The notes beneath the pieces were generated by a model. That model ran no database searches, had not been told where the DNA came from, and saw nothing but the letters and a program-made list of their open reading frames with translations. DNA of 64,000 nucleotides from Enterobacteria phage KhF2: the sequence record KT184314.1. One strand, given 5' to 3'. Position numbers and translations under genes: made by a program. Of the stretch, positions 16,168 to 33,662 are shown piece by piece (the first letter of the stretch is position 1; each line of letters starts with the position of its first letter).

Positions 16168-16195
16168 AGACGTAAAAAGCCCCATTTTAAGGGGC
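16168..16195 (-). terminator. rho-independent terminator ending the minus-strand small-gene array
   Basis: Minus-strand reading AGCCCCTTAAAATGGGGCT followed by TTTTTAC. Confidence 0.6.
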
Positions 16196-16234
16196 TGTTC
16201 AGGTATCTGGGGCTATTTAGCCCCGTTGCGTCGA

Positions 16235-16483
16235 TTAGTTATAATCTTGTTTGTTGTAGTACAGGGAGACGATTTTTTCTCCCCAATAGTGATAAGTATA
16301 ACCATCCTTGAGAACTTCTTGTTTTGTTTCCTCCCAGAACTCATCCGAAGGATTATAATCTTTGATGGTCTGACTGATAAGACATTTCACCATTTCAAAG
16401 GCGTTATCAGTGCCTGCAATGTCAAATTTAACATCCAGAGAGGAAAAACCGAACTCGTTAACAGTAGCGCGGATAGTTGCCAT
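16235..16483 (-). CDS. hypothetical small protein (array gene 1)
   Basis: ORF track; conserved leader module directly upstream. Confidence 0.55.
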   Translation of the reverse strand: MATIRATVNEFGFSSLDVKFDIAGTDNAFEMVKCLISQTIKDYNPSDEFWEETKQEVLKDGYTYHYWGEKIVSLYYNKQDYN

Positions 16484-16549
16484 TTTTGAATCTCCTAGTT
16501 TAAGGGTTTTATTTAGTGGGGAGGTTATCGCCTCCCGTTGATTAGTAAT
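16484..16549. repeat. leader module, subfamily A (hairpin GGGAGG...CCTCCC + conserved RBS)
   Basis: Shares TAGTGGGGA(A)GG...CCTCCCCGTTGAT and RBS block CTAAACTGGAGATTC with six other copies. Confidence 0.7.
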
Positions 16550-16813
16550 TTACTGCATATTGGCGTATGTTGCAAGCCTTTTTTCGTTGTATTTTGTAAG
16601 AATCTCACAAGATACAACATCATACTTTGTAACAGCGTTGCCTTTATCGAGGTCAAAAAAGCCAAACGCTTTACCATCTTTGAATCCGACAACTTCGTAA
16701 GATTCTTTGATGATTTCACCATTGAACAAATCACTTTCGATACGGTGAAATAATGCTACATCTTCTTTGTCGGTTGCAATTTGTAAAAGTGTGGTTAATT
16801 CTACGTTTTCCAT
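16550..16813 (-). CDS. hypothetical small protein (array gene 2)
   Basis: ORF track; leader module upstream. Confidence 0.55.
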   Translation of the reverse strand: MENVELTTLLQIATDKEDVALFHRIESDLFNGEIIKESYEVVGFKDGKAFGFFDLDKGNAVTKYDVVSCEILTKYNEKRLATYANMQ

Positions 16814-16879
16814 CTTGATAACTCCAGTTTAGGATTTTATTTAGTGGGAAAGGTCATTCCCTCCCCGTTGATTGACAAT
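16814..16879. repeat. leader module, subfamily A
   Basis: Conserved sequence with other A copies. Confidence 0.7.
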
Positions 16880-17410
16880 TTACAGACTTTTGATTGTCTC
16901 GTCAATATCTTTTTCAATATCTTTTAAAGTTTTTTCTAAGTTCTTGATATTGAACGTTAAACCTTCACCAAGAGTCTTAGAGTAACCACTAGGACGTAAA
17001 TTATACAGTTTAATTTCTTCCACTTTAAAGAGGCTAGCTAACTCACCGTTTACATCATAAGCCATTGAAACAGTATTTGCAGGTGCATTGTAAAACTTGT
17101 TTAGTGACTTGATAGAACGTTCATAAGCCATTTTATAACCGTTTAAAAGGCTTTTAACGTGGTTGTGAACGTTTTTACACTCATCTAGATAAATCTCTAA
17201 GAATAACGGTAATAATTCCGCTACAGCTTGCATAAAGTGAGAGACTACAACGGTTGAGACATTACGACGATGAACGTAATAAGCCCCGTTTTCTGATTTG
17301 GTGATTGTTGCGAAATGTACCCCATTACAACGAAATTCGTATGTATCTTTTACAGGCTTAGACATTACAGCATTTGAACGAATGAAGTTGATAGCTTGAA
17401 ATTTGTTCAT
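16880..17410 (-). CDS. hypothetical protein (array gene 3, 176 aa)
   Basis: ORF track; leader module upstream. Confidence 0.55.
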   Translation of the reverse strand: MNKFQAINFIRSNAVMSKPVKDTYEFRCNGVHFATITKSENGAYYVHRRNVSTVVVSHFMQAVAELLPLFLEIYLDECKNVHNHVKSLLNGYKMAYERSIKSLNKFYNAPANTVSMAYDVNGELASLFKVEEIKLYNLRPSGYSKTLGEGLTFNIKNLEKTLKDIEKDIDETIKSL

Positions 17411-17470
17411 TTTAGAATCTCCAGTTTAGGACTTTATTTAGTGGGGAGGTCATCCCTCCCGTTGATTAGT
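17411..17470. repeat. leader module, subfamily A
   Basis: Conserved sequence with other A copies. Confidence 0.7.
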
Positions 17471-17628
17471 AATTTACTTGTTTTGATAGCTGATTGCAAG
17501 CAATTTTTTAAGCTTATCTATAAAGAATCTTTTAAGTTAATCCCTTTTAGATAAACCCCCTCGAACAAAGTTACCAATGTCAAGGGGTATTGTCAACACT
17601 TTTTTAAAAGTTTTTTGTAAGTCATTGA

Positions 17629-31260: not shown

Positions 31261-31288
31261 AATACTTTCCTCTTAGTTTACTGTTAAA

Positions 31289-31465
31289 TTACTTGTTAAA
31301 CATTTTACCAGAACCACCACACATAGGGCAACAACCTGCTCTTGTATAACCTTCCCCATTACAGTAGTCACATTTTTTGTGCTCTGCATAGTACTTACAA
31401 AGAAGGTAAACAAACACTGCTACGCCACCAAGTGACAGTAAAATTTCTATCCAATATGCTTGCAT
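31289..31465 (-). CDS. small membrane-anchored protein with DnaJ-type zinc finger (58 aa, below the ORF-track cutoff)
   Basis: Hand translation MQAYWIEILLSLGGVAVFVYLLCKYY...CDYCNGEGY...CPMCGGSG; two CxxCxGxG motifs. Confidence 0.4.
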   Translation of the reverse strand: MQAYWIEILLSLGGVAVFVYLLCKYYAEHKKCDYCNGEGYTRAGCCPMCGGSGKMFNK

Positions 31466-31782
31466 GACTCACCTCTCATATTCTTGTAAAGGATAAAGCT
31501 TCTGTCATGGACGATACTTGTAGATACTGCAAAGTTACTTTCAAGCATCTGTTTATTTGGATTGTAGAAGCTTTCTTTAAACTCGTCAAGTGCAAATTGG
31601 TGATTGTCTGGAAGACCTTTTACACAGACCTTTATTGTGATTGCTGCTGCAATCTTACCAGTCAGTTCTTCTTTAGCTGCTACTAAAATTTTGTTAAGGA
31701 ACTTATGACCATTTTCAGGTTTCTTGATGTTCTCCCAACGTTCCTCTAAGACGATGTTGATGTTCATCTCTTTGATTTTCAT
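31447..31782 (-). CDS. hypothetical protein
   Basis: ORF track. Confidence 0.45.
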   Translation of the reverse strand: MKIKEMNINIVLEERWENIKKPENGHKFLNKILVAAKEELTGKIAAAITIKVCVKGLPDNHQFALDEFKESFYNPNKQMLESNFAVSTSIVHDRSFILYKNMRGESCKHIG

Positions 31783-31802
31783 AATCTTCTCCAGAAATTA
31801 AA

Positions 31803-31828
31803 AAGGCTCCCGTAGGAGCCTCTTATCA
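31803..31828 (-). terminator. rho-independent terminator
   Basis: Minus-strand GGCTCCTACGGGAGCC followed by TTTTTAATTT. Confidence 0.6.
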
Positions 31829-31835
31829 TATACTT

Positions 31836-33617
31836 TTAAAGCTGCTTGTCAATATTATTTCGAATATCACCAAGAGTTGTGTATCCGAACTGCTCAGAGT
31901 CACTAAAGACTAGACGTAAAGCACAAGCTGGATGTTCAAGTGCATCTGCAAAGCTCTGGAACCCATAGCCATCTACAGCTTTCAGATTTTCACCATCCCA
32001 CATAGGTGCTACACCACCAAAAGCAGACTTCTTAACACCACTATCTGTTTTAGGGTCTTTTGCAAGCATAATCTCTTTACCACCAATGCTTGCAAGGGTT
32101 GCTTTGACAGCAAATGCAAAGGTGTCACGAGTCATGTACTGGTAAGTGTAAGAACCTACACCAAACACTACGTTAGAGCTTGCAAAACCCATTTCATACA
32201 AACGCTTCAGTATTTCATTTGCACGTTCCAACGTGATAGAGTCGCCATAAATAAGTCCAATATGCTCATCCAGTACCTTAAAACCTTTAGAGTTAATAGT
32301 TCCTCCAAAGATGTTATACAGTGTCTTGATAGCTCCATCAATCTCAGCTACAGGACGTGTTACAACGTTTGCAGAACCAACCATATAAGCATTTTTCAAC
32401 ATCACTGTATCAGCAACTTCAAAGTCTTCTCTGTCAACAACCATCTCGTAGCCTTCTGACAGTAGCCATCCAGCAATACCATAGTTGATGTTCTCAAGCT
32501 TCATGTTCAGAACAGCATTCAACATTGTGTCACTGGCTTCCAGCTTGCTTAGGTGCTCGTAATAAGCCTTCTTAGCACATTCTAAGTGGATTGCTTTATA
32601 ACCTGTGACAATATGTACAGGGTCTCCAGAGTCAGGGCGAATTACCAGTTTGCCATCACGTCCCATAATTTCTTTACGAAGTGCTGGTAAGATTTCTGAC
32701 ACAGTTCTCCAGAAGTTATAAGTATCTGAAACAATGCTTGCAATACCTGTTGGGTAAGTTTCTGTTAAGAAACGACGGAAGGTTTGTAACTCACCTTTAA
32801 AGCGTCTTTCTTCTTCAATCAACTCATTACCACCTTCCCAAGCAATGTTTGCACACATTACAGAGTGCTCAGTGGCTGGTACAGAACTACCAATATCAGA
32901 GATTGGGTAGGACTGTCCATAGATTCGTTTAGCCGTGTATACAGCAGGGAAGCTATCAGTCCCTTTAAAGCTGGTTAAGTGACCTACAGCGTTAAATGCG
33001 TCATCAGTAAAGCCGGACATACCACGCATAGCAAAATCATGGCACTGATAAGGTAAATGTAAGTCATTGTCACAAGTAAGGTCAGCCCACTTCTTACAGA
33101 TGCGTTTGTAATGCAATGCAATAGTTGCAATGGTGCAAGCCTTCCAAATTTCAGCAGAGAAAGCATCTTCCAGATAACCTGCTACCCAATGAAAACCTGA
33201 AACAGTGTTCTGAAAGACAATCATCGGGACACGCATTGGAACAACTGTGCCTTCTTCTACAGCGTATACTTCAACTGGTAGATAACCTAAGTCGTGAAGT
33301 GCTTCCCAATGCTCTCGACCGATAGCATCTTTACCCAGAACACCATTCATGACTTCTAAGATTTCATCAATGGCTTCTTTTTTATCACGTTCAAAGAAAG
33401 TGGCATTCCAGTGGTCTATCAAGTAATCTTTAACAAAACGTTGAATACCAAAAGCCACTACACCGTCAATTGCTAAGGGGCTGTTAAACCATTTGTCGCT
33501 ACGTGGTGTCAGATTGAACATCAAGTACTCTGTTGCGCTAGGATACTGGTAAACATGACCAGATTTGTAAGCATCTGCATTTAAACCTGCTGGTACTGCA
33601 TAAAGTGATTTAGTCAT
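31836..33617 (-). CDS. nicotinamide phosphoribosyltransferase (NAMPT/NadV)-like protein
   Basis: 593 aa; recalled similarity to the NadV/NAMPT family (not motif-verified); paired with a PRPP-synthetase-like gene. Confidence 0.6.
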   Translation of the reverse strand: MTKSLYAVPAGLNADAYKSGHVYQYPSATEYLMFNLTPRSDKWFNSPLAIDGVVAFGIQRFVKDYLIDHWNATFFERDKKEAIDEILEVMNGVLGKDAIGREHWEALHDLGYLPVEVYAVEEGTVVPMRVPMIVFQNTVSGFHWVAGYLEDAFSAEIWKACTIATIALHYKRICKKWADLTCDNDLHLPYQCHDFAMRGMSGFTDDAFNAVGHLTSFKGTDSFPAVYTAKRIYGQSYPISDIGSSVPATEHSVMCANIAWEGGNELIEEERRFKGELQTFRRFLTETYPTGIASIVSDTYNFWRTVSEILPALRKEIMGRDGKLVIRPDSGDPVHIVTGYKAIHLECAKKAYYEHLSKLEASDTMLNAVLNMKLENINYGIAGWLLSEGYEMVVDREDFEVADTVMLKNAYMVGSANVVTRPVAEIDGAIKTLYNIFGGTINSKGFKVLDEHIGLIYGDSITLERANEILKRLYEMGFASSNVVFGVGSYTYQYMTRDTFAFAVKATLASIGGKEIMLAKDPKTDSGVKKSAFGGVAPMWDGENLKAVDGYGFQSFADALEHPACALRLVFSDSEQFGYTTLGDIRNNIDKQL

Positions 33618-33662
33618 CTTTTAATCTCTCTCAAAATGGGGCTTGGAAGCCCCTATAAAGTT

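Follow-up and report, generated by a model that had tools for sequence, protein, structure and literature searches.

Promoter–hairpin cassettes in T4-like phages and in phage KhF2

Promoter–early stem-loop (PeSL) cassettes have been described from the T4-like phages RB49/phi1, T4/PST and KVP40/nt-1, where a sigma70 promoter with AT-rich upstream sequence is combined with a poly-G/poly-C stem-loop in one of five positional classes and followed by a Shine–Dalgarno sequence (SD) and ATG, in hyperplastic regions marked by recombination (Arbiol et al. 2010, PMC2839356; Comeau et al. 2014, PMC4122927). In RB49 the stem-loop lowered reporter read-through about as much as rrnB T1 (PMC2839356). Here we describe cassettes of similar design in Enterobacteria phage KhF2 (KT184314.1), a Felix O1-like Felixounavirus, built around a hairpin whose arms read GGGGCT and AGCCCC; 'the window' denotes the whole stretch of 64,000 nucleotides that was analysed. 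We consider it probable, on balance, that the GGGGCU/AGCCCC stem is an RNA hairpin that marks transcript boundaries, mostly within PeSL-like promoter–hairpin cassettes.

For the Felix O1 group itself, the genome paper lists 57-bp and 39-bp repeats without interpretation, and states that how transcription passes the many terminators, or is timed, is not known (PMC3185647). Two 57-bp repeats lie just upstream of open reading frames (ORFs) 16 and 20, both of which peak at 5 min, according to weak reverse transcription–polymerase chain reaction data (PMC3185647); both repeats are copies of the module that we call B below. Our search of the literature on Felixounavirus and Felix O1 stem-loops, PeSL and transcriptomes found no prior description of these cassettes. 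Read as promoter–hairpin cassettes, the repeats provide some twelve early promoters and boundary elements that can be tested, in phages with wide use in the typing and biocontrol of Salmonella and E. coli, and they extend the PeSL idea – regulatory cassettes that double as recombination sites – from T4-like phages to an unrelated myovirus subfamily that includes Erwinia phages.

Positions 16000–23507 of the window show 100% identity to Enterobacteria phage KhF1 (KT184313), with matches in 257 phage records. The minus strand carries the genes from ~16.2 to 52 kb, beginning with an array of small ORFs (16.2–23.1 kb), with rIIA, rIIB, nadV (NAMPT) and prs further downstream. NAMPT and Prs were confirmed by Pfam, which returned no match for three array ORFs that were tested, and the names rIIA and rIIB follow the annotation of KT184313. 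Relatives were sampled from 21 viral contigs for the early region, 28 for the nadV region and 29 for a tail-fibre intergenic region.

A stem re-used far beyond chance

An exact scan of the window for GGGGCT-N(0–20)-AGCCCC found nine matches (16209, 18951, 20082, 21154, 21757, 22137, 22609, 28866 and 33638) against 0.02 expected, a number that none of 100 shuffles reached, and the opposite order, AGCCCC-N-GGGGCT, occurred twice (16178 and 18313) against 0.01 expected. We refer to hairpins with the GGGGCT arm 5' on the coding strand as G-first and to those with the AGCCCC arm 5' as C-first. Together these are 11 perfect hairpins where ~0.03 were expected, to which one degenerate copy must be added. 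When GC-rich hairpins were enumerated more generally (perfect stem of at least 6 bp, at least 5 G/C, loop of at most 20 nt), 11 of the 24 in the window used this stem, as did five of the 18 outside the paralogous B modules. Re-use of the stem is far beyond chance, and the recurrent hairpins announced by the original prediction are real, although they form a single family only in part: the five examples given there all exist, displaced by no more than 8 nt, the sequence that it placed at 16170 being the minus-strand reading of 16178–16196. It had overlooked a hairpin at 16209–16224, beside the array terminator, and a degenerate B copy at 19286–19314, and related stems occur beyond its span at 8184, 14590 and 47095.

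Outside hairpins, the isolated words GGGGCT and AGCCCC occur ~6 times per strand, compared with ~5 expected from composition; they are not avoided, so that nothing points to a restriction-like or nuclease target.

The B modules

Each early gene on the minus (coding) strand is preceded by one of two repeated modules, A or B. Module A consists of a promoter (TTGACA-17-TAAATT), a leader hairpin GGGGAGGG..CCUUCCCC and then CCACTAAAT..CCTAAACTGGAGA..ATG, which it shares with module B. Seven B modules at 18.9–22.7 kb are paralogous copies of one ~90-bp cassette, in which AATAAAGTACTTTACA is followed after 1 nt by arm GGGGCTTA, a loop of 11–15 nt containing TAnnnT, arm TAAGCCCC, AGATAAAGAGCTTTACC, and a leader, SD and ATG as in module A. 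The predicted promoter has its -35 at TTTACA and its -10 17–18 nt later, within the loop; the arms begin 1 nt past the -35 and end just past the -10, and therefore occupy the promoter spacer and the start-site region. Upstream of the promoters lies AATAAAGTAC, in an AT-rich region, and the SD and start-codon end of the modules shares ...CCACTAAATCCTAAACTGGAGATTCTAAAATG. Every B hairpin is also flanked on both sides by the 12-bp palindrome TAAAGNNCTTTA, which has 13 sites (window 18936–22652) against 0.18 expected, all inside B modules, and whose upstream copy overlaps the -35. The copies in the window are:

18905–18994, minus strand: B module 1, hairpin 18951–18979; TAAAGTACTTTA palindrome, TTTACA, arm GGGGCTTA, -10 TAAAGT in the loop, arm TAAGCCCC, AGATAAAGAGCTTTACC, leader, SD, ATG
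19241–19329, minus strand: B module 2, degenerate, hairpin 19286–19314; GGGGCUUAA..UUAAGCCUC, with GAGGCT on the plus strand giving a coding-strand G.U pair
20037–20125, minus strand: B module 3, hairpin 20082–20110; promoter TTTACA-17-TATCTT with TG
21108–21195, minus strand: B module 4, hairpin 21154–21181; arms GGGGCTA/TAGCCCC, promoter TTTACA-17-TATGAT with TG
21711–21800, minus strand: B module 5, hairpin 21757–21785; identical to module 1
22092–22180, minus strand: B module 6, hairpin 22137–22165; a mosaic whose 5' half is that of modules 1 and 5 and whose ribosome-binding-site half is that of module 3
22562–22652, minus strand: B module 7, hairpin 22609–22637; arms GGGGCTTAA/TTAAGCCCC, promoter TTTACA-17-TATCTT with TG

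B modules occur at 1320 places in 288 phage records, which by name are nearly all Felix O1-like, Erwinia phages included. For comparison we extracted 126 modules (55–56 unique) from 22 genomes, anchoring on the flanks rather than on the stem. TTTACA was exact in all 126, and at a spacing of 17–18 nt the T1, A2 and T6 of the -10 were invariant in 55 of 56 unique modules while positions 3–5 varied freely. Such conservation is the signature expected of a sigma70 promoter, and an independent promoter scan calls the B promoters too.

The modules thus carry what defines a PeSL cassette: a putative sigma70 early promoter with AT-rich upstream sequence, a G-tract/C-tract stem-loop between or overlapping the promoter boxes, an SD and start codon at the 3' end, and clustering around small ORFs, where they bound insertions, deletions and swaps between relatives. 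Both kinds of cassette also show ~70–100 bp of intergenic conservation within a variable region of small ORFs lacking Pfam matches. Read directly, RB49 cassettes have the form TTGACA-GGGGATC-N3-GATCCCC-TATAAT, some with arms bracketing the -10, and the layout TTGACA-GGGG...CCCC-TATAAT is also that of the rIIB promoter hairpin at 28866 (below). The systems differ in lineage (Ounavirinae here, Straboviridae for PeSL) and in the stem itself (GGGGYU/AGCCCC compared with GGGGAUC/GAUCCCC); moreover, the B module has two extra lower helices formed from the flanking TAAAGNNCTTTA palindromes, and our stem also occurs outside the variable region and in ordinary terminators. The arrangement -35 / G-run...C-run / -10 suggests a convergent or widely shared solution.

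Module A leader hairpins lie at 16519–16536, 17444–17460, 18005–18025, 19563–19583, 20428–20445 and 23077–23097, a few nucleotides past strong TTGACA-17-TAAATT promoters; the GGGGAGGG..CCUUCCCC arms form a coding-strand G.U pair, the stems covary among relatives (GGGAGGC/GCCTCCC compared with GGGAGGT/ACCTCCC), and nine consecutive C occur in the copy at 20428. Although no U-tract follows them, these hairpins are labelled in GenBank records as Rho-independent terminators, with the features of KT184313 assigned to the non-coding strand.

Pairing is conserved in coding-strand RNA

Within Felixounavirus the outer four G-C pairs of the B stem are almost invariant, and the inner pairs alternate between A-U and U-A. 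At pair 5 the unique modules have C-G (27), coding-strand U.G (25) or U-A (one), and among all of them the stem contains a single A.C mismatch. The arms in Erwinia phage SunLIRen (Kolesnikvirus) read GGUGUUUAU/AUAAGCACC (GGUG/CACC), with pair 3 compensated, and a second type of module there has the arms GGGGUUA/UAACCCC. Coding-strand wobble pairs are found elsewhere too, in an ortholog of the 16178 hairpin (AGCUCC) and in a tail-fibre hairpin (AGCCCUC). From the coding-strand U.G pairs and the compensated stems, the conserved object is therefore a hairpin in the coding-strand RNA, not the hexamer GGGGCT, and the pattern of stem variation argues against both a sequence-specific reader and a symmetric DNA site.

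As coding-strand RNA the cassette hairpins have predicted folding free energies of -11.5 to -19.9 kcal/mol. An extended 75-nt B-module RNA (module 1) folds into three stacked helices at -21.7 kcal/mol (z-score -4.3), with ~18–20 paired positions, internal loops and some covariation, and an RNAalifold consensus recovers the three helices. Among 113 sequences, 98.1% of the cells pair, and covariation is 0.085 compared with 0.056 in shuffles (none of 500 reaching the observed value) and at most 0.017 in slid controls, although the B sequences are related, so that independent events are fewer than these counts suggest. At pair 11-64, 84 sequences have G-C and 14 have U-A; pair 12-63 is U.G, C-G or U-A, with U.G in 100 of 113. 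The covariation links the left half-site of the upstream TAAAGNNCTTTA with the right half-site of the downstream one and does not connect the halves of a single 12-mer. This favours pairing of the two copies with each other, at long range in the RNA, over the alternative of two separate sites for a protein.

These observations bear on the idea that the palindromes act at the DNA level, either as operators by which a dimeric phage regulator shuts off the early promoters or as supercoiling-sensing cruciforms. The arms do bracket or fill core promoter elements, a 12-bp palindrome stands on either side of every B hairpin, and the tetraloop inversions described below imply hairpin or cruciform formation, or recombination between arms, in DNA. 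We nevertheless regard this as very unlikely: the B stems are strand-asymmetric (25 unique U.G pairs against one A.C), the U.G at pair 12-63 would become a mismatch (A.C) if the opposite strand were the one to pair, the covariation joins half-sites across the hairpin, and an arm spacing of 3–28 nt in both arm orders is unfit for one dimeric binder. On the wobble asymmetry and the variable arm spacing we rejected a dimeric operator or cruciform as the main function.

Another possibility, akin to the common protein or RNase recognition target suggested by the original prediction, is that the stem, or the extended B fold, is the site of one trans-acting factor (host RNase III, a phage RNA-binding protein or an endoribonuclease) that processes polycistronic early RNA. 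In the early region of T7, the RNase III hairpins R0.3–R1.3 are intercistronic, irregular and ~20 bp long with internal loops, and lie among early genes transcribed by host RNA polymerase. The extended B fold, an interrupted stem of ~18–20 bp with internal loops, is comparable to these sites and close to RNase III substrate size; the near-invariance of the outer four G-C pairs within Felixounavirus is in keeping with a bound factor, as is the high conservation of AGAUAAAGAGCUUUA after the hairpin, for which there is no other known reason. Unlike the T7 sites, however, the upper stem alone has 6–9 bp, the structure overlaps a promoter, and the short hairpins of the family are far too small. Hairpins of 6–8 bp fall below RNase III substrate length, and RNase III acting on the short hairpins was rejected for that reason, which leaves only the extended B-module fold as a possible substrate. 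More generally, the stem word varies (U.G in about half of the unique modules, GGUG/CACC and U-A pairs in Erwinia phages), the loops are hypervariable and flip, and arm order, loop size (3–28 nt) and flanks differ between contexts. An Rfam scan of 14–35 kb gave four sub-threshold chance matches (E 0.18–0.95), none on the modules. The common protein or RNase target is not supported by this variation, and we hold a single trans-acting factor to be quite unlikely.

Short G-first hairpins at other gene boundaries

Three further G-first hairpins lie in the window outside the B modules:

16209–16224, minus strand: GGGGCU-AAAU-AGCCCC, a B-module relic just past the stop codon of the last array gene, with the -10/loop segment deleted
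28859–28888, minus strand: predicted promoter between rIIA and rIIB, TTGACA-18-TAAAAT (promoter scan 11/12), whose spacer is filled by the hairpin AAGGGGCU-UCAA-AGCCCCUU (28864–28883)
33638–33653, minus strand: GGGGCU-UCCA-AGCCCC between prs (upstream) and nadV (downstream), followed by AUUUUGAGAGAG, with AUUUU and the SD

The flanks of the first, TATCTGGGGCTA..TAGCCCCG / CCCCAGATA, are common to B modules, and relative L019 has a decayed full-length B module in its place; 16209 is therefore a B relic. It lies 12 nt upstream of the 16178 hairpin on the RNA, and the two fold as tandem hairpins (-27.5 kcal/mol, z-score -4.6). Relatives down to 73–75% NAMPT identity retain the rIIB promoter hairpin in the form TTGACA-(A)GGGGCT-loop-AGCCCC(T)-TAGAAT, with loops TTGA, TCAA, GAAA or GCAA. 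At 33638, predicted to be an intercistronic attenuator or 3'-end hairpin, the stem is invariant across relatives save for two degraded copies considered below, and the tetraloop is hypervariable. The tail-fibre intergenic hairpin, outside the window (L057 3684–3701), keeps the stem as well.

CTTTAYA stands directly upstream of the prs–nadV and tail-fibre hairpins, as it does in the B modules; downstream, these two hairpins are followed by UUUU and an SD. A -35-like hexamer (TTGACA, TTTACA or TTTATA) immediately precedes 28866, 33638 and the tail-fibre hairpin. The short G-first boundary hairpins probably derive from the same unit as the B modules. The claim of common origin is thereby borne out for the B modules, as a paralogous ~90-bp cassette, and for the 16209 relic, through its shared flanks; for the other G-first hairpins it is plausible, given the -35-like hexamer, and between the C-first and G-first classes, which have no common flanks, shared ancestry could not be established.

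Even between genomes that are otherwise nearly identical, the short GGGGCT hairpins have hypervariable tetraloops (28866–28881, 33638–33653 and L057; loci L027–L054 and L058–L086). Six reverse-complement loop pairs occur (TGAA/TTCA, TAAA/TTTA, TTGA/TCAA, TGAT/ATCA, TTAT/ATAA, and TTCA/TGAA at a second site), compared with 1.5 expected under position-specific frequencies (P ~0.0004). Hypervariability and reverse-complement pairs together indicate, therefore, that the loop sequence is uninformative and is flipped in the DNA itself, and suggest that the loops invert by template switching or by recombination between the arms.

C-first hairpins and ordinary terminators

The C-first hairpins and the related stems differ from the foregoing in context:

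16173–16196, minus strand: array terminator AGCCCC-UUAAAAU-GGGGCU-UUUUU (hairpin 16178), closing the minus-strand early gene array; -13.0 kcal/mol
18313–18329, minus strand: hairpin AGCCCCU-CAC-AGGGGCU, followed by UUU and the SD AGGAGG of ORF 18062–18295
14590–14612, plus strand: related C-first terminator AGCCUCC-UUAAUC-GGGGGCU-UUUUUU, with a U.G pair, at the end of the plus-strand gene 13952–14575
8184–8199, plus strand: related hairpin AGGGGC-UGAU-GCCCCU followed by UUUAACUAUUU, corresponding to Felix O1 t38
47095–47121, minus strand: related C-first terminator AAAGCCC-N13-GGGCUUU-UU, corresponding to Felix O1 t104

The array terminator is the ortholog of Felix O1 terminator t23 (PMC3185647 Table 2); its relatives keep the stem with loops of 3 to 28 nt, the AGCUCC variant pairing as U.G. 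The 18313 hairpin, predicted to be an intercistronic attenuator or weak terminator, lies in a gap for which the promoter scan predicted no promoter. Its stem is also kept in relatives while the loop varies, and where the upstream gene differs, so does the hairpin (AGGCCC..GGGCC); it therefore belongs to the upstream gene or cassette, as a 3' element. As fuzzy anchors for the 16178 and 18313 orthologs returned mostly noise, only clearly orthologous lines were used.

It might be held that all of the hairpins are generic, independently evolved Rho-independent terminators, AT-rich coliphages favouring G-run/C-run stems between A and T tracts. For 16178, a canonical terminator, this is apt: four Felix O1 terminators have a GGGGC or GCCC(C) core (PMC3185647 Table 2), RB49 terminators use GGGGGC-GNNA-GCCCCC, and the outer A-T pair of the C-first class is simply A-tract and U-tract. 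A second stem, AGGCTCC/GGAGCCT, is likewise re-used, in four of the 18 non-B GC-rich hairpins, all of them true terminators. As an account of the whole family, however, we find the proposal unlikely. Only one of the 12 hairpins, 16178, passes a terminator scan (at least 5 T in 8); seven are copies of one cassette whose shared flanks extend over ~90 bp; in the G-first class a -35-like hexamer immediately precedes the hairpin, and the U-run is short or absent; and the five non-B hairpins noted above use one hexamer out of hundreds possible. A GC stem, short loop and U-rich tract are found together in 16178, 14590 and 47095 individually, not in the set as a whole: 18313 and 33638 are followed by 3–4 U residues, the B modules, 16209 and 28866 by none. 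The hairpins 16178, 14590, 47095 and 8184 resemble the Rho-independent terminators of Felix O1 (t23, t38, t76 and t104; PMC3185647 Table 2) in having a GC stem and U-run at gene ends, unlike the B hairpins, 16209 and 28866, which lack a U-tract, lie inside or beside promoters and fail the scan. That the stems are something other than independent terminators, as the original prediction had it, applies to the G-first class, none of which passes the scan, and does not apply to 16178 or to the terminator-like attenuator 18313. The G4C core shared by the C-first terminators is most simply explained by these phages' general preference for G-run/C-run stems.

Several side observations concern terminators and the sequence between them. 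The terminator AGCCTCCTTAATCGGGGGCTTTTTT (window 14590–14612; L087 3554–3600) is identical in Erwinia phage SunLIRen despite strongly diverged genomes. The second stem, as AGGCTCC-(UUCG/UACG)-GGAGCCT with a U-run, forms canonical terminators at 9949, 25878, 31804 and 63716 (also at 43892, 59997 and 27668–27691), and its loops are far more conserved across relatives than those of the GGGGCT hairpins. Between the convergent terminators 14590 (plus strand) and 16178 (minus strand) lies a 1.5-kb non-coding stretch (14620–16170), conserved in relatives and packed with degenerate repeats CTTAACA, TAACAAG and TATAGAG, often ~10–11 bp apart, which give it an iteron-like look.

Proposed function of the cassettes

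We propose that each B cassette combines a host sigma70 promoter, the hairpin arms making up its spacer and start site, with a shared leader and ribosome-binding site downstream. Initiation at the B promoter, at or after the 3' arm, would yield a transcript without the hairpin, whereas read-through from an upstream cassette would transcribe the whole palindrome, so that the upper stem (6–9 bp) and the two lower helices could form a structure of ~18–20 bp in the read-through RNA alone. This hairpin would attenuate or terminate the read-through, or cap the 3' end of the upstream mRNA, leaving each small gene insulated under its own promoter. The short hairpins in the rIIB promoter spacer and between prs and nadV may do the same boundary job between conserved genes, and the C-first versions with a U-run would act as ordinary intrinsic terminators or attenuators. 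The sequences show promoter conservation, pairing in the RNA, the build of the cassettes and shuffling at their borders; for the start position, and for attenuation or termination in vivo, we infer from the RB49 PeSL experiments. The RNA hairpin is likely to serve in insulating transcription units, whether it attenuates or terminates transcription or protects 3' ends.

A number of points weigh against this proposal. The RB49 reporter result was obtained with a different stem, and, since no U-tract follows the B hairpins or 28866, their sequence alone gives no reason to expect efficient intrinsic termination. Because the sequences are not independent, part of the U.G excess could go back to a small number of inherited mutations that recombination has spread, and two coding-strand A.C mismatches are present, one in the 18313 ortholog of L003/L015 and one in a B module. 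In two of 28 relatives the 33638 hairpin is degraded, and hence dispensable, and the loop flips indicate that the palindromes also behave as DNA-level structures.

A stronger version of the insulation model would make the conserved, interrupted ~18–20-bp stem of the B module (two TAAAG/CUUUA helices and the GGGGYU helix) a dedicated processing or termination signal, read by RNase III or a phage factor, that cuts early read-through RNA into single-gene units across the Ounavirinae, and the recurrent tetraloop inversions would be a sign that the palindromes also extrude in replicating phage DNA; we offer this as a speculation, and an improbable one.

Gene shuffling at module borders

The strings of cassettes differ among the 22 genomes, with many differences of presence and absence. 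A given ORF family may follow an A module in one genome and a B module in another, the order of ORFs 24 and 26 is swapped among genomes, and the unit consisting of a B module and ORF 26, present in the window, is absent from relative L004, with breakpoints exactly at the starts of consecutive B modules. Gain, loss and exchange of genes coincide exactly with the boundaries of modules. In the insulation model the repeated cassettes would supply the homology for recombination by which genes are added, deleted and exchanged, so that the shuffling is seen as a side effect of the modules.

Observations on sequence records

The ends of GenBank record KT184313 overlap by ~377 nt (positions 1–377 and 87980–88356; window 23131–23507), and its first ~200 nt are N-rich and of low quality; the window crosses this junction cleanly and has itself a few N at 94–108. 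Two records with names from outside the group, GU169904 (labelled Staphylococcus phage SA1) and MG065664 (Campylobacter phage A132), contain Felix O1-like sequence, B modules included, at ~88–91% identity, and are probably contaminated or mislabelled.

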